Shown here in pieces: positions 2,125 to 25,932 of a stretch of DNA of 64,000 nt. The position numbers were made by a program, and so were the translations under genes. Source of the DNA: Promethearchaeota archaeon (GTDB lineage Archaea > Asgardarchaeota > Lokiarchaeia > Sigyniarchaeales > SOKP01); assembly GCA_019057795.1 (NCBI GenBank), contig JAHLWS010000053.1, positions 32,001 through 96,000 on the forward strand, in the 5' to 3' direction. The notes beneath the pieces are model-generated. The model did not search any database, was not told where the DNA came from, and saw only the letters and a program-made list of their open reading frames with translations. How positions within the stretch are numbered: position 1 is the first letter of the stretch; each line of letters opens with the position of its first letter.

Positions 2125-2961
2125 TCAAAGACCTAGTTGCGATACCATCATTCTTTTCAGCTCTTCTTTATTTTTAGGCAAACCAAACATATCTGCATAC
2201 TTATCTGTTGTAGCCAATTCAGCTGACCTTCCTTTTTTTACTGCCGATATTAGATCGTTTTCTAAAAGGTATTTGACATGTTCGTAAGCCCCACTTCCTC
2301 TTAATTTAATAACAGTTGATTTTAAAATTGGTTGCTTCAACGCGATAATCGTTAGCGTTCTTAAGTAACGCTCAGCAATAGCGCCTCCTTTGGCGAATTT
2401 AGATACAGTTTCGGTAAGTTCGGGTCTAAGCTGCATCTGGTATTTTTCTCCAATTTGAGCGACAATTAACGCGCCAGAATGTTCTAAATAATCAAAAGCA
2501 ACAACTCTTACTAATTCTTCAACTTCTTTTTTGGGAATTTCTAATTTAGTTGATAATTCTTCGACATCAAGGGGTCTACCTGCTGCGTAAAGGGCGCCTT
2601 CTATTAGATTTCTCCGTAGTTCTTTTAATTGTATTTCTAAATCTTCTTTCGTGATTTCTGGGGTTATTTGGGGTTCTTCACCGTCTTTTCCTATAATTTT
2701 AGTTTCTAGTTCACTTAATCTTTCTTCTGATATTTCGGAACTTAATGTGTCTTCTTTAAATTCTTCTTTGGATTCTTTTTCGAGTACTTCTTCAATATAT
2801 TCATCAGTATCAATAGTATCCTCTATTTCTTCAGGAATCTTTTCTACTTGAGAGATATTTTCTTCTTCTATTTCACTTATATGTATTTCTTCCTTCTCTT
2901 CTTCTATTTCAGTTTCAATTTCAGGTAGTTTTTCTAGTTCTTTTTCGCTATTTTCGTTCAT
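2125..2961 (-). CDS. scpB: SMC-ScpAB KITE subunit ScpB with a long acidic N-terminal extension
   Basis: IEGALYAAGRPL, LRTLTIIALKQPI, LRGSGAYEHVKYL, TTDKYADMFGL; downstream of scpA and smc. Confidence 0.92.
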   Translation of the reverse strand: MNENSEKELEKLPEIETEIEEEKEEIHISEIEEENISQVEKIPEEIEDTIDTDEYIEEVLEKESKEEFKEDTLSSEISEERLSELETKIIGKDGEEPQITPEITKEDLEIQLKELRRNLIEGALYAAGRPLDVEELSTKLEIPKKEVEELVRVVAFDYLEHSGALIVAQIGEKYQMQLRPELTETVSKFAKGGAIAERYLRTLTIIALKQPILKSTVIKLRGSGAYEHVKYLLENDLISAVKKGRSAELATTDKYADMFGLPKNKEELKRMMVSQLGL

Positions 2962-2990: not shown

Positions 2991-3998
2991 TTATTTTCTT
3001 AAGTTAATTGAAATATTTTTAAAAACTTCTTCTTGTGATAGTATTAGCTTATTGCCCGTGGACAAGAACATAAGCGCCAAAAACATTCTTACTAAAGCAA
3101 ACTTTTTACCAAGGTCGCTTTCTTCTTCAGTATTAATAATTTTGGCTATATCAAAAAAACTTGTTTCTTTATCGTCAAGTTGTATTTTCGATTTAATGCG
3201 GTTAAACCAAGAATTGTGCAGTTCTTCTACCGTTTGTTCTTTTCCACTAATATGCTTCAAAAGTTCTTTTGGTAATTGAGCTTTTGATCTCATTTGAATT
3301 CTTTGTTGTTTTATTTCGTCCCTCCGCATTCTCCGTCGTTTTAATTTTTCTTTCTTTTGCATTGTTTCGATTATGGCAGACCTCATCGCGTCAAATAATT
3401 CATCTTTAGTGGAAATTAGCATTTTTGGCTGAATGGGTTGCGGTAAGGTCTTTGGAATTATTCGAGAATGTTTTTCCCGGAATTTCTCTAATTCTTCTTT
3501 TTTTTGAATTTGTTCTTCTTCTCTTATGATACTCGAAATTTTATAATGATGAAGTACTGCTGATGTTTTGAGAGCGATACCTGCAATTTTATAATTGATT
3601 AAATCTTCATGTAGCATATTATCGAAAAATTTATCTACCAAAGATGCTAAATCATAGAACGCAACATTAGATTCTTTTGCGACTTCGCTATCTAATAGCG
3701 AATTATAGGGGGGTTTTTGCCAAAATTTCAAATCTAATTTTTGTTTATGAATTAGTGTAGGATCATCTTCTTCGCCAGCAATTAATTCTTCTTCAATTAT
3801 TTCCTCCACATCTTCCTGTTCTTGAGTTCTATCGATAAATTCTGGATGAGAAGTTACCTTGCTTAAAAGCTTTATAATATCGTTCTTTTTGGACTTAGAA
3901 GGGATATTAATCTTATTTTTACTCGCAAATTCTCTTAATTGCTTAACACTCCATTCCGTGAAGGCGTACTTCTTTTCTGAGGCATTCTTTTCAGGAAT
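2991..3998 (-). CDS. scpA: Kleisin ScpA; proposed ATT start at 3998 adds an N-terminal SAP/HeH-like module (ORF track start is GTG 3809)
   Basis: Kleisin N domain (LVDKFF..IAGIALKTSAVLHHYK) and C-terminal wHTH (RMFLALMFL..LSQEEVF); frame open upstream of 3809 with AGGTG-N7-ATT. Identity is secure, start is inferred. Confidence 0.85.
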   Translation of the reverse strand: MPEKNASEKKYAFTEWSVKQLREFASKNKINIPSKSKKNDIIKLLSKVTSHPEFIDRTQEQEDVEEIIEEELIAGEEDDPTLIHKQKLDLKFWQKPPYNSLLDSEVAKESNVAFYDLASLVDKFFDNMLHEDLINYKIAGIALKTSAVLHHYKISSIIREEEQIQKKEELEKFREKHSRIIPKTLPQPIQPKMLISTKDELFDAMRSAIIETMQKKEKLKRRRMRRDEIKQQRIQMRSKAQLPKELLKHISGKEQTVEELHNSWFNRIKSKIQLDDKETSFFDIAKIINTEEESDLGKKFALVRMFLALMFLSTGNKLILSQEEVFKNISINLRK

Positions 3999-4030
3999 AA
4001 TATTACACCTAAAACTTTTAATTATTAATC

Positions 4031-7000
4031 TTAATTTTCTTCTACATTTGTGGGCACATCTGGAAGTTCAAGTAGCCTCTTGGCTTCTTCTTCCAAATCT
4101 ACGCTAAAGATATCGGTTATTCCACTTTGTTGCATGGAAACGCCATAAATTCGATCAGCATTTACAATATTTTCCTCTCTATGACTGATTACCATAAATT
4201 GTGCTTGTCTCGCAAATTCCTTTATAACTACACTGACTCTGTGCACATTTGGACCGTCTAAAGCGGCATCAATCTCATCCATGATGTAAAATGGAGCAGG
4301 ATAAAATTCTTGGACGGCAAATATAAAAGATAACGCAACCAAAGTTTTTTCGCCCCCACTAAGGATCTCCAAACTAGAGATACGTTTTCCACGAGGTCGA
4401 GCTTCAATACTAACCCCTCCCTCAAACGGTTTATCGGGGCGATCAAGAATCATTTTAGCAGATCCCCCGGGCGAAAGCTTCTGGAAAATGCGCGAAAACT
4501 CTCGGTTTATCTCGTGATATGATTTCATGAAGGTTCTAGTTTTTTCCAAATCAATCTTATCAATTGCGTCAAGTATAGATTTCCTTTCGCGTTGAATCGT
4601 CTGTCTCCTCATATCAATTTCGTTGAATCGCTCTTTTACAGTATCGTATTGTGTAATTGCCTTTAAATTAACGGGTTCTAGAGCTTTTTTCTTGTTATTG
4701 GCAGTAGAAATATCCGATTGCAGACCAGATTCAGATAAATCGTCAGTAACTGGGGGTAATGAGCCATAGTCTTTAGAGCGTTGATACAGCGTTTCAATTT
4801 GATCCGTGGTGATAATTTTTTTAGATTCGTAATTATTCAATTTAGAACGTTCCATAGAGTGGTCTGATTTAAGTTCATTCAATTGATTCTGATAATTTTT
4901 TTGTTTTTTCCAAGATATATCCTTTCCTTGAATTTCTTTGTTTATCTCTTCTTGCTTGAGGCTCCTTTTATCGTTTTCTTGGTTTAGATCGTTTTTAACC
5001 TTTTCAATATCTTTTAATATGGAATCAACTTGTTTTTCGGCATCTTTGATATCTTCGTGCAAGGATATAATTTTTTGTTCTCTTTCCTTATTTTTGTTTA
5101 ATTCGTTTAATTTAGCTTGGGATTTGTGAAGATCTTTGTTTAATTTATTTAATTTTTTCTGAGCTCTCTTCTGGGCGTCTAACTCTTTGTTTTTATCCTC
5201 ATGCATTGAATTTATTATTTGTTGTACCTCGTCAACTTTCTTTTGTACTCCGTCTACCTGAGAGTTAAGTCCTTCTGTCTCTTGATTACAACTTGTAATG
5301 CTTTTGCTTGCTTCAACATTTTCCTTAGATAAATCTTCAATTGAATTTATAATCATCATTACATTTTCAAGGCCCCTTAACTTATCCATGGTTGTTTCTA
5401 AATTCTTGTTCTGTTCATCAATTTGTGTTCTTAACTTTTCAGTACTTTCCCAAAAGTTGTCTTTTTCAGAAAGACGGGCTTCTATTTTTGAAATTATTGC
5501 GTCTTGCTCTAGCTTAAGATTCTTTATATTTTCTTCAGTATTGATTATAACATTTTTCTTCTCTTCTATATTACTATTTAATTCTTTTATATTACTTTCA
5601 ATTTCAATAATATCGTCGTAAAACGATTGGATACCTTGTAATTCTTGTAGCTTCTTTTGCAGCCCATCTAATTCTATTTGTTTGCCTTCAATATTTTTTT
5701 TAATTGTCGAAATATCGTCCCAATAAATGTTTTTTAACTGCTTTAAATTTTTAATCTCAGCCTCAAAGTTTTCTTTTTGCTTCTCTTCTACCACCAAGTT
5801 CCTCTGCTCAAGTTCATTTTCAGATTTCTTAATTTTTTCATTAATTTCGCTAATTCTTTTATTAATATCTTCTAGTCTTTTATTACAAGCAGAAAGATCT
5901 ACTGAATCGTGGTTATTTTGAGTGCTAATCACGCTTAATTTTTTGTCAATAGCATTAAAGTCGTTATTTTGAATATTAATATTTTCAGTGATTTCTTCGA
6001 GTTGTTTATATAAATCTTGGCTTTTCGACATAGTTAACTTTCTTAACGAAAGATATACATTTTCAAGGATCTCCATTAAATCTTGTACAAAGCTATCAAA
6101 GGTTGAGGTAGATTCTTGTATCTCCACATCTGCTGATTCTTTTACTTTATCTATTAATTGGTCTATGGTAGAATCAATGTTATCAGTAAAGAGTGCTAAA
6201 GTTTGAAGGATAGATTTAAGAGTTTCAGACATTTCAGAAGCATCAGATCTTTCTTCAACTTCAGAGCTAACTCCTTCAATAGTTTTCATAATATCAATTA
6301 TATCTAAAACAAATTGTTTAAAATTCGTTCCACTGGTTTCGATAGCTTCTGCGTTTGATTGTTGAATGTTGCCCTTTATTGATTCAACGGATATATTGAT
6401 GTTTTGAGTTAACATATTTAAAATCTGAAGGATTCCTGTAATATCTTCTGTGTTTCTTTCGTATTCTTCTTCTGTACTTTCAATCTTCAACAATAAATTA
6501 TCTTTTTCGGTTGAAAGTTCCCCCATGCGTCTTTGAATATTTTCTTTTTTCTTATTCAAATTTTGTGATTCTTTGTCTGTTTTAGTAAGGTTACCGCTTA
6601 AAGTAGACGATTTTAAATCCAATTCACGCTTTTCGCGTTCAAGATTTGTAAGTTCTTTTTTAATTAATTTTAATCTAGTATTGATATTTTCAATCCTAGA
6701 TTTGTTATCATAGATTTCATTTACGATAGAATCTTGTTTCATTAACAATAATTCTAAATTTTGTTCATTTTTTCTATAAGTAGAATCTTCTTCTTTTGCT
6801 TGTCTTCTAAACTCGTTAATATCTTTTAGTAAAGTATCTCTTTTTTTCAGCAATTCTTTTAAAACTTCTTCTGTATCTTTTCCTTTACTAAGGTTTTTAA
6901 TTTTATTTTCAGTAGCTACTTTTCTCAATTTTAATTTCTCAATACGGTCACTATTCATTTTAATTTCTGTATTTAATGAGGATAGCATAGAGTTGAAATC

Positions 7001-8488
7001 GGCTATTTTCGAATTTAATTGGCTCTTTTCATCTCGTAATTCATTTATACCTTTTTCTAATTCTTTCTGGTTATCATTTTCCTTAGAAATTTTTACATTT
7101 AAGTTAGCTACTTCTTTTCTTATAATTTCTGCTTCCTTTTTTGTGCTTTTTATCGCTTCCTCTACACTCTCAGAATCTCCCTTCAATTTATTAAGCTCTG
7201 CTTCTAACTTTATTTTCTTCTCTTCATTTTTTTTAATGTTTTCTTTTAGAAACTTTAATTTGGCTTTATTTGAGGAAATGCTCTGCTTGATCGTTGAAAT
7301 TTCTCGATTAAGTGTCGATTTTGTGTTGTTATTATTTTGGATTTTAGTCTCAATTTCTGCTTGATTTTGTTGTTTACTCTCGATTTCGCCTTTAGTCTCT
7401 TCAATCAAGTTATCTGTTTCCATTATTACCTTTGATTCTGACTCTATTAAAGAATCGTAAGTCTGACCCTCTTCAAGTTCCATTTGTAAATTTTCTAAGG
7501 TTTTTATCTCTTGAGTTAGTTTTTCTATTGATTTTTTAAAATTTTTTAAAGAAGTTTGATTCGAAGATTGTTGGGTTTTTAATAGAGTAATATTTTCGGT
7601 AATGACTTCTCTTTCTTTTTCTTTCTCAGATATTGTTTTTTGTATGTTTTCCATAACTAAGGTTTCTTGTTGTAGCAACTCTTCTTGTCTTGTTAATTTT
7701 TCCTGCAATTCTTCAATAATATAATTAGATTCCTCTATTTTAACCTCCAATTCTTCCTCTTCTTTCCTCAATTTTGAAATCTTTAAAGCGATCAATTGAG
7801 CATTGTAATATGAAACCTTTTCATCTAGTTCCTTCCAAGCTAAAGCATCGTTTTTTTCTTTTTCAACTTTTTTAAGTTGAGAAGACACTTCTTTAAAAAT
7901 TGCTTCAAATTGCCCTAGATCACGCTCGGCTTTTTCTAACTCTTTCATCGTTGCGTCCTTCATTTCGTCGTACTTCTGAAGGCCAATTAGATTTTCAATG
8001 AATAATCTGCGACCCACTTCGTTCATATGAGTCAATTCCACGATTTTTCCTTGCAAAACAAATTGGTTGCTGCCATCAGGATCTACATTAGCTACAGCTA
8101 AAGCGTTAAGAATTTGTTGACGGGTAGCTTTTTTCTCATTCATTTTATAGCCGCCACCACCTCCTCTTTGTATAGTTCGACTAATTTCAAAAGTATCAGT
8201 TCCGCCTGGAAATATTTTTTCGGAATTATCAAAATATAGAGACACTGTGGCTCTATTTGAAGGGTTTTTACCTCGAGAGCCAGCAAAAATTAAATCTTCA
8301 AGACTTTTGGCTCTCATAGTTTTCTTGCTTAATCTACCTAAAGCAAAAGTTAATGCGTCAATAATATTGGATTTGCCGGCCCCATTAGGCCCTACGATGC
8401 ATGTAAACCCTGAAGAGAGCCTTATAGTTACCGTACGATCTCCGAAGGATTTAAATCCTGTCATCGAAATTTTTTTAATATAGGTCAA
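4031..8488 (-). CDS. smc: Chromosome segregation ATPase SMC, 1485 aa, non-canonical central (hinge) domain
   Basis: GFKSF, Walker A GPNGAGKSN, Q-loop FVLQG, PVNLKAI, signature LSGGEK, Walker B IMDEID, ISH; TTG start; operon with scpAB. Confidence 0.95.
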   Translation of the reverse strand: MTYIKKISMTGFKSFGDRTVTIRLSSGFTCIVGPNGAGKSNIIDALTFALGRLSKKTMRAKSLEDLIFAGSRGKNPSNRATVSLYFDNSEKIFPGGTDTFEISRTIQRGGGGGYKMNEKKATRQQILNALAVANVDPDGSNQFVLQGKIVELTHMNEVGRRLFIENLIGLQKYDEMKDATMKELEKAERDLGQFEAIFKEVSSQLKKVEKEKNDALAWKELDEKVSYYNAQLIALKISKLRKEEEELEVKIEESNYIIEELQEKLTRQEELLQQETLVMENIQKTISEKEKEREVITENITLLKTQQSSNQTSLKNFKKSIEKLTQEIKTLENLQMELEEGQTYDSLIESESKVIMETDNLIEETKGEIESKQQNQAEIETKIQNNNNTKSTLNREISTIKQSISSNKAKLKFLKENIKKNEEKKIKLEAELNKLKGDSESVEEAIKSTKKEAEIIRKEVANLNVKISKENDNQKELEKGINELRDEKSQLNSKIADFNSMLSSLNTEIKMNSDRIEKLKLRKVATENKIKNLSKGKDTEEVLKELLKKRDTLLKDINEFRRQAKEEDSTYRKNEQNLELLLMKQDSIVNEIYDNKSRIENINTRLKLIKKELTNLEREKRELDLKSSTLSGNLTKTDKESQNLNKKKENIQRRMGELSTEKDNLLLKIESTEEEYERNTEDITGILQILNMLTQNINISVESIKGNIQQSNAEAIETSGTNFKQFVLDIIDIMKTIEGVSSEVEERSDASEMSETLKSILQTLALFTDNIDSTIDQLIDKVKESADVEIQESTSTFDSFVQDLMEILENVYLSLRKLTMSKSQDLYKQLEEITENINIQNNDFNAIDKKLSVISTQNNHDSVDLSACNKRLEDINKRISEINEKIKKSENELEQRNLVVEEKQKENFEAEIKNLKQLKNIYWDDISTIKKNIEGKQIELDGLQKKLQELQGIQSFYDDIIEIESNIKELNSNIEEKKNVIINTEENIKNLKLEQDAIISKIEARLSEKDNFWESTEKLRTQIDEQNKNLETTMDKLRGLENVMMIINSIEDLSKENVEASKSITSCNQETEGLNSQVDGVQKKVDEVQQIINSMHEDKNKELDAQKRAQKKLNKLNKDLHKSQAKLNELNKNKEREQKIISLHEDIKDAEKQVDSILKDIEKVKNDLNQENDKRSLKQEEINKEIQGKDISWKKQKNYQNQLNELKSDHSMERSKLNNYESKKIITTDQIETLYQRSKDYGSLPPVTDDLSESGLQSDISTANNKKKALEPVNLKAITQYDTVKERFNEIDMRRQTIQRERKSILDAIDKIDLEKTRTFMKSYHEINREFSRIFQKLSPGGSAKMILDRPDKPFEGGVSIEARPRGKRISSLEILSGGEKTLVALSFIFAVQEFYPAPFYIMDEIDAALDGPNVHRVSVVIKEFARQAQFMVISHREENIVNADRIYGVSMQQSGITDIFSVDLEEEAKRLLELPDVPTNVEEN

Positions 8489-8657: not shown

Positions 8658-9851
8658 TTAAAAATTTTGTTTATTAAAAATTGCGTCTAAAATGCTTTTT
8701 AATTGCTGTGGATTTATCACCATGAAATAAAAATTGTAGTTTAAGATGTTGTCGTTAAATTTTCTATAATCGTTAAAGTTATTTTTTTTAGAGGCGTTTA
8801 AAATTCCAATGTTTCTAAGAGTCGTAATCAAATTTTTAAATTCTTCCATATCTTTTTCGTAATCAATTGATTCACACGAAACAAAGTAAAGATCTTTTAG
8901 TTCCTTTATAGTTATGTAAAGGTTTGAGTTTTTTAAGAAATGATTCGATAAATTGTCTAAAAAGATTATTGTTAGTAATTCTGCTTCAGAAATATAAGAA
9001 AGCATGCTAAACTCGTCTGTAACTTGAAGCGAATCGAACTGATTTCTAAGGATTTCAGAGATTTCTAGATTGTTTAAACTAACTTGCTGATTTAATACGG
9101 GATAAAGCTCCCGTAGTATTTCGATCCCTTTTCCTGGAACTGGCACATAATGCTCGAAAATTAAATCTGTTATAAATTCTACTAATTCTTTGTCAATTTC
9201 ACGCAAAAAAGTTAAGGAGACTCTTTGTTTTAGAATGTCGAAAAGTTCCTTATATGAAAAATAATTTAATTTTTTCTTTAAGTCAAATTCACTTAAAAGA
9301 TCTAATGTTGAGGGTTTTAAAGCCTGATTTACGGTAGCTAGAACGTTCACGCTCGTATCTTTACCGTATTGTAATAACTTTTTGAAGATTTCTGGCTCCA
9401 AATGCTCGATATTGTTAAAAATGAATATAAGGTTGTGATCAACTTTTCTACATGTTAGTTTAAATAGATTCCATAAATTTGATATATTCGAACTTATAAT
9501 GCTTTTAAAATTAAAATTAGTATTTTGATTTTGACCAATTTTAGTTAGTAAAGAAATAATAATTTCCTCTAGATTTTTTTCCCTACAATCAACTTGGATG
9601 TTTAAAAATTCGGTGTTCAAGTTCGATAAATCTCTAATAACTTTATTTATAATAACTTGCTTTCCAATTCCTTGAATTCCTTGATATAAGATAGATAAAC
9701 TAAAATCATCTGAAAATGAATCTTTTAGAATGGAAAATAGAGATTTTTCTTCTCTATTGCGATACAATATTTTGGGTGGGACATAATGTGTGTCAAATAA
9801 AGCTCGAGGACCTACATAACTACTATTATTAATCCTTGGTGTTGATATCAT
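8658..9851 (-). CDS. Cdc6/Orc1-like AAA+/wHTH protein with degenerate ATPase motifs
   Basis: FDTHYVPPKILYRNRE, GIQGIGKQ, FSYKELFDILKQRV; Walker B reads FIFNNIE. Confidence 0.8.
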   Translation of the reverse strand: MISTPRINNSSYVGPRALFDTHYVPPKILYRNREEKSLFSILKDSFSDDFSLSILYQGIQGIGKQVIINKVIRDLSNLNTEFLNIQVDCREKNLEEIIISLLTKIGQNQNTNFNFKSIISSNISNLWNLFKLTCRKVDHNLIFIFNNIEHLEPEIFKKLLQYGKDTSVNVLATVNQALKPSTLDLLSEFDLKKKLNYFSYKELFDILKQRVSLTFLREIDKELVEFITDLIFEHYVPVPGKGIEILRELYPVLNQQVSLNNLEISEILRNQFDSLQVTDEFSMLSYISEAELLTIIFLDNLSNHFLKNSNLYITIKELKDLYFVSCESIDYEKDMEEFKNLITTLRNIGILNASKKNNFNDYRKFNDNILNYNFYFMVINPQQLKSILDAIFNKQNF

Positions 9852-23134: not shown

Positions 23135-23878
23135 ATGAAAAAGAATTTACTGTTTATTGGCCACAGAGGGACTAGAATAGATTATGATGAAAATACGTTA
23201 AAATCATTCGAAGTAGCGATTAAATCCGGAGCTCATTACATTGAATTTGATGTTCGGAGATTGAACGATGGAAATTTGTTAGTCTTTCATGATGCCTTCA
23301 TAGACAAGACTATAGTTGGTTCAGTGTATCTAAAAGATTTAACTTACGCTGAACTTAAAAATTATAAAACTAAAATTAGAAATGCTGAAATTCCTCTTTT
23401 AACTGAAGTGCTAGATAAACTTGCAAAAAGAACGAAATTCATGATTGAATTAAAAGAAGAAGAAATAAAAGATGATGTAATCAATATGGTGATTAAGAAG
23501 GGATTATTAAAAGATTGCGTTATTTGCGGAAGAAATTATGAATTATTAAGGATAATTAAAAAAGAATTTCCTAAATGTCAAGTTTGTTATAATATTACTA
23601 AAGGAAAGGGATTAAATTTTAAAAAATTTATAGAATTGGGGAATCAGAAGAATTTACGGTTCATACCAGACATGATAAGTTTAAAGTCAAATTTAATTAA
23701 AGCTAATTTTATAGACATTTGTCACGAAAACGGTATTAAAGCTCTTGCTTGGGACTTTATTAAATACGCTAATTCTGTTAAAATAATTAAAGATTTAATT
23801 AAACTTCAAATCGATGGGATTTTATTTGATGATCATAAAAATATTAAAATTATAAAAAAGTGGTTAAAAAGAACTTAA
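23135..23878 (+). CDS. Glycerophosphodiester phosphodiesterase
   Basis: IGHRG, ENT, IEFDV, VFHD, IELK, IDGILFD. Confidence 0.92.
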   Translation: MKKNLLFIGHRGTRIDYDENTLKSFEVAIKSGAHYIEFDVRRLNDGNLLVFHDAFIDKTIVGSVYLKDLTYAELKNYKTKIRNAEIPLLTEVLDKLAKRTKFMIELKEEEIKDDVINMVIKKGLLKDCVICGRNYELLRIIKKEFPKCQVCYNITKGKGLNFKKFIELGNQKNLRFIPDMISLKSNLIKANFIDICHENGIKALAWDFIKYANSVKIIKDLIKLQIDGILFDDHKNIKIIKKWLKRT

Positions 23879-25932
23879 CTTAATTTCGTTATTTTAGATG
23901 TTCCGGGAGGAAGTATAAGGATAATATCGTCTAAAGACAAAATTTTTACCCACTTTTTATTATCCACTTCAGATTTATTAAGAAAGATTGATTTCAATTC
24001 CTTTGCTAACTTTCCTTTGGTTAAACCAGATTTTGAAGGTTTAATTAGTATTGAAATGTTTGTTTTTTTTTTAATGGTGCTTGTTGGCTCGCAAATTATT
24101 TGCGGATATAATATTTTAATATTCGGATTAGCTCCGTCTTTGATTTCTATGAGCTCTAATCGAAGAGTTAACTCAGTTTTAGCGTCTTTAATTATATTCT
24201 TCTTTCCAGAAATCATAAAAGAGCCTTTAGGTAAATACTCGCCAGAAGGAGGTGTTTTCGAAATTTGATTCGCTAAAACATAAAAAACATCAACAACGCC
24301 CCAATTTTCTTTCCAAGCTATAGAAAAACTTGCTACGAAGTCAGCCGCCTCCTTAATTGAACTTTCGGGAATTTCATTATTTTCTGGATTTTTAATTATG
24401 GTTAGAGGAGAGCCCGAAAAATTTGTGTGAAAAATTAAATCGTAAGGCGTTATATATTTTTTAAATATCGTTTCGTTCGAACTCGCGTCCCTTCCGCCAA
24501 TTACTAAGAAACCATCTGAAGAAATAAACCACCTAAATTTTTCATACCATTTTTTTGTTGGTTTTTTAATTAAAAAATTCACTTCTAATTCGATTGATTC
24601 TTTTTTAAGCTTTAGTTTTTCAATGTTGTGTTTTGTTATTTCAATTGCCGGAAATGTTCCAGTTAATTTCTTTTCTGCTTTTTTACCTTTATAATAAATT
24701 AAATTTGCGTTTTCGCCAACTGTTTTATTTAAATCCAAATATACTTCGTTATTGTTAATATCAATTACAACTTGTTTGGTTGCAGGGATAATTTTAACAA
24801 AAAATGCTAACTCTTCTAAACTTTCGTTTTTAGCACTTTGTAATTTGGCGTTAATTTCATCCCAACCGTAGCCTTTAGCTTTAGCGTCTAAAATTCCGTC
24901 AAATAACTTATGCATGGCATTAAAATTGGCGTATATAAAAGCTCCATATTCGTAATACATGTCTTTTCTTATTTTGAGTTCTATAAGGTATTCTTGTTGA
25001 TTTCTTAATATTTTTTCTTGAGATTTTATTTTTTTATTTATTGATTGATCTTGTGGCGTTATTAAATTACTGGAATCTATTTTTGAAAAGTATTCGTCAA
25101 CGGCGTCATTAAAAGAATTTACTTGTTTTTTCTTATTGTTTTTAAAAAGTTCTAATTCAAAAGGGATAACTGAAATCTCTTCTTCGTTCTCATTAAAAAC
25201 AATCTGTGCATTTATTTCACCAAAAAGCAATTTATTTCTTAAATTTTTGAAAGCGTGAAATAATAAATTCAATTCTTCTTGATTTAAATCGTTGCTGTTT
25301 TTAGATTTATCAATCTTTGCCATATGACATATTTCTTCACCATATAATCCTGAAATGTTTATATTTCGTGCTAAAATTCTTACTATTTCACCCTCAAAAT
25401 TATGTATAATTTCGTTAAAATCATTTTGATTAATAGTTAGAAAATCTATTCCCCTGGATTTTGGAAATATGTATTCTCTATTAGCTAAAATATCCCTATC
25501 TCTATATTTACTGTAGCGTTTTGCTATTTTAACAAGGTTTTTATCGTCTAATACTATATAGTTTCCCTTATTGAATAATTCAATTATAAATTTCCAGGGT
25601 TTTCCCTCTATATTGCTTAATTCGAATATAATAATTCTATCAAAATTATGTTGATTGATTGCTAATATTCTTCTATTCTTTAGGAGTTTTCTTAGAGACC
25701 CGATATACTGACTCGGATATTTTGGTATTGGGTAATCGTAATTAGTAAAATTTATACGCGAATCGTTTTTAACGATTAATATTTTTTTTTCATTTAATTT
25801 AGTCTTAATTTTTAAAATTAATATATCCTCAATTTCGTAGATATTAGTAATTTTACCTTGAGTTAGAACTAAATCTAATTCTTTCGTAATAGCAAATACA
25901 TCGAAATTTGAAAATTTAATATTTTTTTTCAT
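23875..25932 (-). CDS. rqcH: Ribosome quality control factor RqcH/NEMF (NFACT family)
   Basis: FDRII, IIELFNKGN, KKWYEKFRWF, GGRDASSNE, SKTPPSGEYLPKGSFMISG. Confidence 0.93.
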   Translation of the reverse strand: MKKNIKFSNFDVFAITKELDLVLTQGKITNIYEIEDILILKIKTKLNEKKILIVKNDSRINFTNYDYPIPKYPSQYIGSLRKLLKNRRILAINQHNFDRIIIFELSNIEGKPWKFIIELFNKGNYIVLDDKNLVKIAKRYSKYRDRDILANREYIFPKSRGIDFLTINQNDFNEIIHNFEGEIVRILARNINISGLYGEEICHMAKIDKSKNSNDLNQEELNLLFHAFKNLRNKLLFGEINAQIVFNENEEEISVIPFELELFKNNKKKQVNSFNDAVDEYFSKIDSSNLITPQDQSINKKIKSQEKILRNQQEYLIELKIRKDMYYEYGAFIYANFNAMHKLFDGILDAKAKGYGWDEINAKLQSAKNESLEELAFFVKIIPATKQVVIDINNNEVYLDLNKTVGENANLIYYKGKKAEKKLTGTFPAIEITKHNIEKLKLKKESIELEVNFLIKKPTKKWYEKFRWFISSDGFLVIGGRDASSNETIFKKYITPYDLIFHTNFSGSPLTIIKNPENNEIPESSIKEAADFVASFSIAWKENWGVVDVFYVLANQISKTPPSGEYLPKGSFMISGKKNIIKDAKTELTLRLELIEIKDGANPNIKILYPQIICEPTSTIKKKTNISILIKPSKSGLTKGKLAKELKSIFLNKSEVDNKKWVKILSLDDIILILPPGTSKITKLS

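Follow-up and report, generated by a model that had tools for sequence, protein, structure and literature searches.

In the chromosome-folding complexes of the SMC type, the kleisin is the subunit by which the ring is closed. SMC complexes are thought to need several points of contact with DNA for loop extrusion, and some kleisins carry added DNA-contacting parts of their own, such as the N-terminal winged helix of MukF and the safety belt of Brn1. Domains of the helix-extended-helix (HeH), SAP and LEM type are typical chromatin and nuclear-envelope tethers of eukaryotes. This fold does not always serve DNA binding: the partner of LEM is BAF, that of the SAP-like domain of MANF/CDNF is BiP, and Rho-N contacts RNA. 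At the level of translation, the bacterial genes infC and pcnB use AUU as their start codon, in infC as part of an autoregulatory logic. A ‘rare ATT start codon’ has been proposed for the Asgard tubulin gene AtubA (bioRxiv 10.64898/2026.02.15.705738). A literature search yielded no systematic description of such near-cognate starts and no kleisin with a SAP or HeH domain, and a recent survey of SMC-complex evolution that covers Asgard kleisins makes no mention of a SAP/HeH-bearing one.

The locus described here lies in a stretch of 64,000 nucleotides (the window) that corresponds to C53:32001-96000 of the 4.95-Mb assembly (G000) of a Promethearchaeota archaeon. It resembles the Smc-ScpAB systems of Pyrococcus and Bacillus subtilis (4i99, 5xg3, 5h66), in that a kleisin gene fills the slot between smc and scpB and its product combines a winged helix of the ScpA-C/Scc1-C type with a ScpB-type kite partner. 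In contrast to ScpA, this kleisin is without a match to PF02616 and has about 80 extra N-terminal residues, comprising a predicted HeH module and an acidic linker, whilst its partner, an SMC of 1485 aa, shows no detectable hinge.

Results

A divergent kleisin between smc and scpB

The kleisin gene adjoins smc and the kite gene in the order smc, kleisin, scpB, all on the minus strand (Table 1). The heads of the window's SMC match Pyrococcus Smc (E 1e-117), SMC_N being the only Pfam family found in this protein, and the ScpB protein scores above the cut-off of the NCBIfam model TIGR00281. The ScpB product (2125-2961, minus strand) also has around 118 extra, mostly acidic N-terminal residues ahead of its Pfam ScpB domain (119-269). 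Directly upstream of smc, an open reading frame at 8658-9851 (minus strand) gives faint matches to Cdc6_C and AAA (E 0.007) and may represent a divergent Orc1/Cdc6-like gene.

Table 1. Features of the smc-kleisin-scpB locus (window positions) and further examples of near-cognate starts (contig positions in assembly G000).
Feature	Position	Strand	Details
smc	4031..8488	-	1485 aa; TTG start; stop TAA 4033-4031
Kleisin gene	2991-3998	-	335 aa from ATT; stop 2993-2991
scpB (kite subunit)	2125..2961	-	278 aa; Pfam SMC_ScpB E 3e-33, residues 119-269
Shine-Dalgarno-like AGGTG	4006..4010	-	direct reading; 7-nt spacer 4005-3999 before ATT
Proposed kleisin start codon ATT	3996..3998	-	no canonical start 3810-4067; aligned with orthologue starts
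HeH/SAP-like module (predicted)	3849..3968	-	residues 11-50; helix 18-27, linker 28-37, helix 38-49
Acidic linker	3759..3827	-	residues ~58-80, QEQEDVEEIIEEELIAGEEDD; E/D-rich in orthologues; low pLDDT
Kleisin core	2994..3749	-	residues 84-335
C-terminal winged helix	3000-3230	-	residues 257-333; Foldseek matches ScpA-C/Scc1-C
Near-cognate-start examples	C5:39799-40299	-	GGTG 7 nt upstream
	C31:7926-8513	-	GGTG 7 nt upstream
	C42:42354-43535	+	GGTG 7 nt upstream

For the kleisin itself, a search with Pfam PF02616 (SMC_ScpA) at a limit of E 1 came up empty, as did a six-frame search of the whole genome; NCBIfam has no family for it, and a profile search of the PDB returned Scc1-C only, at E 0.12. 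The full-length AF2 model has a mean pLDDT of 62, with about 70–78 in the C-terminal part. Its top Foldseek match is ScpA-C (4i99_C; TM by target 0.80, probability 1.0), and the other top matches are ScpA-C (5xg3_C, 5h66_C), Scc1-C (6qpq_B, 1w1w_E) and Brn1. The region of residues ~84-176, examined for the N-terminal helical domain by which kleisins bind the SMC neck, is highly conserved (KFWQKPP...HHYKISSII), with pLDDT of 35–60 in the model, and positions 84-175 match the N-terminal part of the short kleisins found in other Asgard families. On the strength of the modelled C-terminal winged helix and its matches, together with the position of the gene between smc and scpB, the product of 2991-3998 (minus strand) is identified as a divergent kleisin.

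An open frame upstream of the called start

Gene finders start the kleisin at a GTG at position 3809. The first-pass annotation held that the frame stays open above this codon, as far as the smc stop, and encodes a SAP/HeH-like module that can be reached from a non-canonical start only. Direct reading confirms the frame, its translation and the lack of a canonical start: the stop-to-stop frame occupies 2991-4067 (minus strand), its first in-frame ATG, GTG or TTG is GTG 3809, and none of these codons occurs between 3810 and 4067. The extension from ATT 3998 to GTG 3809 amounts to 63 codons; the translation reads IPEKNASEKKYAFTEWSVKQLREFASKNKINIPSKSKKNDIIKLLSK. The AGGTG that had been picked out 7 nt ahead of ATT 3998 is likewise present, and the same arrangement recurs in related genomes. 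A second ATT at 4001-3999, one codon upstream, is a candidate alternative start. ATT 3998 is favoured because it aligns with the ATG of orthologues and sits 7 nt after GGTG, the distance preferred in this genome, and from the sequence it is the best candidate for the start of the gene. With the gene probably starting at ATT and not ATG, its front-end domain is missed by gene finders.

Conservation of the extension

A database search with the 335-aa kleisin returned 368 homologues, many of them of about 335 aa with 100% query coverage, whilst the closest relatives are filed as shortened products of 272–273 aa (P0009, P0071, P0077). The N-terminal segment is kept throughout the orthologue alignments, and the initiator methionine of P0001, P0007, P0008, P0028 and P0054 aligns exactly with ATT 3998; the N-termini at this position read MSENN in P0001, MPEET in P0008, MPEED in P0054 and MSEKK in P0028.

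The smc-scpA junction was compared in 42 species-level genomes of the window's GTDB family that carry the HeH form. Ten of them have ATG at the codon aligned with ATT 3998, the kind of relative that the first-pass annotation had suggested looking for; this codon is ATT, ATA or ATC in 29, and in the other 3 an ATC is followed by GTT or GTA. All 42 genomes have GGTG about 7 nt upstream of the aligned start codon. An in-frame stop usually lies 0–9 codons upstream, often as the TGA inside GGTGA, and in L010 and L052 TAA directly precedes the ATC. No canonical start of any kind is found ahead of helix 1 in 21 genomes. In some others, the sole canonical codon is a GTG that lies within the GGTG motif or abuts it, leaving too little room for the motif to act as its ribosome-binding site. 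Gene finders have chosen a GTG within or beside GGTG in several cases (L009, L011, L012, L017, L056; P0012, P0040, P0048), and kleisins called from such a codon are 2–4 residues longer than the likely true product.

Between genomes lacking a canonical start, pN/pS over the HeH segment is 0.13–0.22, with synonymous sites near saturation. The conservation on which the first-pass annotation had staked its proposal is thus present at both levels, in the orthologue alignments and in these ratios, and on this comparative evidence the extension is real coding sequence under purifying selection. A sequencing error at the ATT was considered and rejected, the same codon being found in an independent genome (93% identity) and ATT, ATA or ATC in 28 further genomes. 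Fusion of SMC and kleisin by frameshift or readthrough was rejected as well, as most relatives have an in-frame stop 0–2 codons before the start.

Near-cognate starts across the genome

The whole assembly was scanned for GGTG followed by each codon at each spacing, with the requirement that the frame stay open for 100 codons or more downstream and have a stop no more than 10 codons upstream. ATG and TTG after GGTG peak at spacings of 5–9 nt, with the maximum at 7. At this same spacing there are 21 cases of ATT and 22 of ATA against a background of about 6–7, and the control codons are flat across the scan with no peak. Restricting the scan to cases in which no canonical start follows within 20 codons leaves, at 7 nt, 10 for ATT, 11 for ATA, 19 for ATG, 12 for TTG and 3 for GTG; ATT, ATA and ATC starts are about as frequent as ATG in the narrow class scanned. 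Since ATT and ATA peak at the same distance from GGTG, the ATT of the kleisin appears to be one case of a genome-wide property. Examples include ribosomal protein uS4, starting at ATC (IGDPRRLKKK), a small GTPase with an ATT start whose P-loop precedes the first canonical start, and a UxaA-like gene with an ATA start 7 nt after GGTG. The features expected of near-cognate initiation are found together: coding sequence that is conserved ahead of the first canonical start, an in-frame stop that bounds it and a suitably spaced ribosome-binding site.

Fold and family of the N-terminal module

An AF2 model built on an alignment of 46 N-termini gives a helix, an extended linker and a second helix, in keeping with the fold that had been postulated for the extension; across residues 11-50 the pLDDT is about 88. 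The module has the pattern TVxxLRxF...I.IPSKSKKxDII and is basic, residues 11-50 holding about 10 K/R against 3 D/E. No chain of the PDB matched the 71-residue model at the Foldseek limit of E 0.001; CDNF SAP-like, rice SAP and Rho came closest, at E 2–8. Exhaustive structural alignment of the module against 48,161 chains (VIA-align) placed T4 endonuclease VII at the top (Z 6.0), followed by rows rich in SAP, LEM and Rho-N domains: PIAS1 SAP (5.0), SLX4 SAP (4.9), CDNF SAP-like (4.9), Rho residues 1-48 (4.8), 1zrj SAP (4.7), emerin LEM (4.0) and Tho1 SAP (3.9), with an hnRNP-U-like SAP also among the neighbours. SAP, SAP-like, LEM and Rho-N domains make up about 13 of the first 27 rows, with Z 3.8–5.0. 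For a domain of 40 residues such modest scores are to be expected, and by themselves they are no proof of homology; a small helical motif may reach Z 3.9–5.0 by chance alone.

Searched as a profile against the PDB, the N-termini returned no significant match (best R2D2, E 0.065). In Pfam, the window's copy matches Ish1 (E 2e-4, 22.4 bits, cut-off 26.6), Rho_N (E 4.5e-4, 20.6 bits, cut-off 24.9) and HeH (E 0.01, 16 bits, cut-off 28.9), below the gathering cut-off in every case. At E 0.01 or better, Rho_N finds 40 of the 46 orthologous N-termini, HeH 38, Ish1 33 and SAP 10, the best E value being about 2e-7, and some orthologues carry precomputed matches to PF10281, PF12949, PF07498 or PF02037. 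The profile search of the 63-aa extension that the first-pass annotation had put forward therefore speaks for the module in the orthologues (38–40 of 46 for HeH and Rho_N), but not, at the level of the cut-offs, for the window's own copy. Given the conservation, the AF2 fold, the structural neighbours and the Pfam clan matches in most orthologues, the claim of a HeH/SAP-like module on this kleisin holds, and membership of the helix-extended-helix superfamily is well supported at the level that so small a domain allows.

The SMC partner and the distribution of appendages

No match to the PF06470 hinge was found in residues 450-1100 of the window's SMC, even at E 10. In the centre of this protein (window 5909-6421, minus strand; residues ~690-860), inspection by eye picks out a pair of similar helical units, each some 75 residues long, ILQILNMLTQNINIS...FKQFVLDIIDIM and ILQTLALFTDNIDST...FDSFVQDLMEIL. 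The paired units may form a replacement dimerisation module; an ESM Atlas look-up of the SMC centre returned unnamed clusters only. The genome has a second SMC (G000:C78:164752-165096, minus strand; 1166-aa frame) with a weak SMC_hinge match of 34 bits. In the family genera g4, g5 and g8, there is a third SMC, of about 1200 aa, whose hinge match is strong (112–121 bits) and whose gene lies off the contig of the kleisin, and one sister-family genome likewise keeps a strong-hinge SMC elsewhere.

In a sample of 200 Asgard genomes, 40 of them from the window's family, the full-length kleisin form is found in 40/40 family genomes. The kleisins of other Asgard families are about 240 aa long and match positions 84-175 of the profile only, and hence are without the extension; some 2 kb away from them is an SMC of about 1200 aa whose PF06470 hinge scores strongly (110–135 bits). 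In the window's family, there is no hinge match on the contig of the kleisin. Among the genomes sampled, N-terminal appendages occur only on kleisins beside hinge-less SMCs, and judged by these profile matches the association is real in the sample. The pattern represents one or a few evolutionary events, so that it is not independent evidence and cannot show compensation; that a kleisin tether would compensate for the missing hinge, as the first-pass annotation raised as a possibility, is plausible.

The appendage itself varies. In genus g8 (L063-L066) a C2HC zinc-finger-like sequence, MPKCPYCGK..RLSQHKC, replaces HeH on the kleisin, in two sister families (L059-L062) its place is taken by a K/S/T-rich basic tail of 70–150 residues, and the kleisins P0078, P0100 and P0113 have two HeH copies. 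The module is also present on other proteins. Long-form Top6B (1100–1150 aa) has a HeH-like motif in its C-terminal tail, NWTVNELKEYC...RKSEIIKKI (L072, L073, L074). The Top6B of this genome (L074, G000:C53:12888-16331) lies on the same contig, some 18 kb from the kleisin (pairwise E 4e-4), relatives' Top6B carry the module too (Rho_N 28.4 bits in G005), and in several genomes Top6B is ~18–27 kb from the smc operon. A 685-aa open reading frame at 23875-25932, considered as a Top6B, is an NFACT protein. A gelsolin-repeat protein (L003:742-1761, plus strand) ends in two tandem HeH (Ish1 43 bits, SAP 30 bits), and a GIFT/ABC_transp_aux protein (L002:1492-2778, minus strand) in one.

Discussion

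These observations are most simply read as describing a 335-aa Lokiarchaeial kleisin with an ATT start and a HeH front end that would bind DNA or chromatin, an account to which, taken as a whole, we assign a probability of roughly 0.6. Translation would begin at ATT 3998, set in place by the GGTG 7 nt before it, rather than at the GTG 3809 of the gene finders, giving a protein with the basic HeH module (11-50), the acidic linker and the kleisin body in that order. The C-terminal winged helix of the kleisin would dock on the SMC head, and binding of DNA or chromatin by the HeH module would provide the ring with an extra attachment point near the SMC heads. The weak start codon may hold kleisin synthesis below that of SMC within the same operon. 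A role as DNA tether is plausible for the kleisin HeH, and for the module in general we favour a generic nucleic-acid or chromatin affinity, which is suggested by its basic charge, by the zinc-finger and K-rich replacements and by the copy on Top6B.

Against this proposal stands the fact that standard gene finders give products of 272–273 aa both here and in close relatives (P0009, P0071, P0077), as they should if the gene started at GTG 3809 and the open frame above it were a relic or leader that is never translated. We regard this as highly improbable. Protein-level conservation extends across the family with pN/pS of 0.13–0.22, many orthologues have ATG at the aligned codon, the spacing from GGTG is conserved and near-cognate starts are in use across this genome. 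Together, the conservation, the alignment of the starts, the upstream stops and the pN/pS values rule out that the extension is a relic, that the ATT is a sequencing error or that SMC and kleisin are fused. The function of the module is a separate matter, and the occurrence of HeH on gelsolin-repeat and GIFT-domain proteins suits a protein-targeting role no less than DNA binding. The module could be a protein–protein tag by which kleisin, Top6B, gelsolin and GIFT proteins dock on one partner, for example a chromatin or scaffold protein. Its presence in the same genome on gelsolin-repeat (Ish1 43 bits) and GIFT proteins, which are functionally unrelated, would fit such a tag, and so would the LEM–BAF and SAP-like–BiP protein complexes among its structural neighbours. 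However, the module is strongly basic, and its exchange for a lysine-rich tail or a zinc finger in sister lineages fits generic nucleic-acid affinity better, so that on balance a targeting tag seems unlikely.

The affinity could also be for RNA, as in the N-terminal domain of Rho, linking the SMC complex to transcripts or transcribing regions. Rho_N is indeed the Pfam family that matches most of the orthologous N-termini (40/46), and Rho residues 1-48 are among the structural neighbours (Z 4.8). The HeH of Rho, however, works together with an OB fold that is absent here, and SAP, HeH and Ish1 models match the module about as well, which leaves RNA binding with little probability. A HeH that binds DNA or chromatin is, in our view, the better description of this kleisin.

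A bolder reading goes further. In it, the kleisin appendage would be exchangeable (HeH, tandem HeH, C2HC zinc finger, lysine-rich tail), and would represent a DNA anchor that is supplied elsewhere by the hinge or by other subunits. A tag common to the kleisin and Top6B would bring SMC and topoisomerase VI to the same sites, and the persistence of a weak AUU/AUA start would keep the yield of kleisin under that of SMC within one operon. Taking these together, it is tempting to suppose that the Lokiarchaeia rebuilt a condensin-type SMC complex, with a helical substitute for the hinge, a DNA anchor borne on the kleisin, a tag shared with Top6B and a weak start; we offer this wider proposal tentatively and consider it doubtful as a whole. 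A natural complex that combines the lack of a recognisable hinge with a kleisin module of DNA-binding type is a ready test of which contacts are needed, and the occurrence of HeH on kleisin and Top6B in archaeal relatives of eukaryotes bears on the origin of chromatin tethering. There is a practical consequence for annotation. With ATT, ATA and ATC serving as starts, standard gene finders would systematically clip proteins in these genomes, and the databases hold many 272-aa kleisin fragments without the HeH domain. Public databases already contain HeH-kleisin proteins, most of them labelled hypothetical or entered as shortened kleisins.

Comparison with known systems

The near-cognate start recalls the AUU of infC and pcnB and the ATT of AtubA: there too a ribosome-binding site positions an AUU start, and gene finders clip the N-terminus. 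The start of the kleisin differs from these cases in persisting at one gene across dozens of species, in interchanging with ATG, ATA and ATC, and in forming part of a genome-wide pattern. With the SAP, HeH, LEM and Rho-N domains (PF02037, PF12949, PF10281, PF07498; 1v66 PIAS1, 1h1j Tho1, 1a62 Rho), the module has in common a basic character and a pair of short helices with an extended linker of about 10 residues between them, and its paralogues elsewhere in this genome clear the Pfam cut-offs; unlike those domains, it is fused to a kleisin, and the window's copy falls below the cut-offs. Finally, MukF and the eukaryotic kleisins provide a precedent for a kleisin that adds a DNA-contacting or extra domain of its own, as is predicted here from the fold, although the winged helix of MukF and the safety belt of Brn1 are not HeH domains and differ from the present module in fold, position and lineage.
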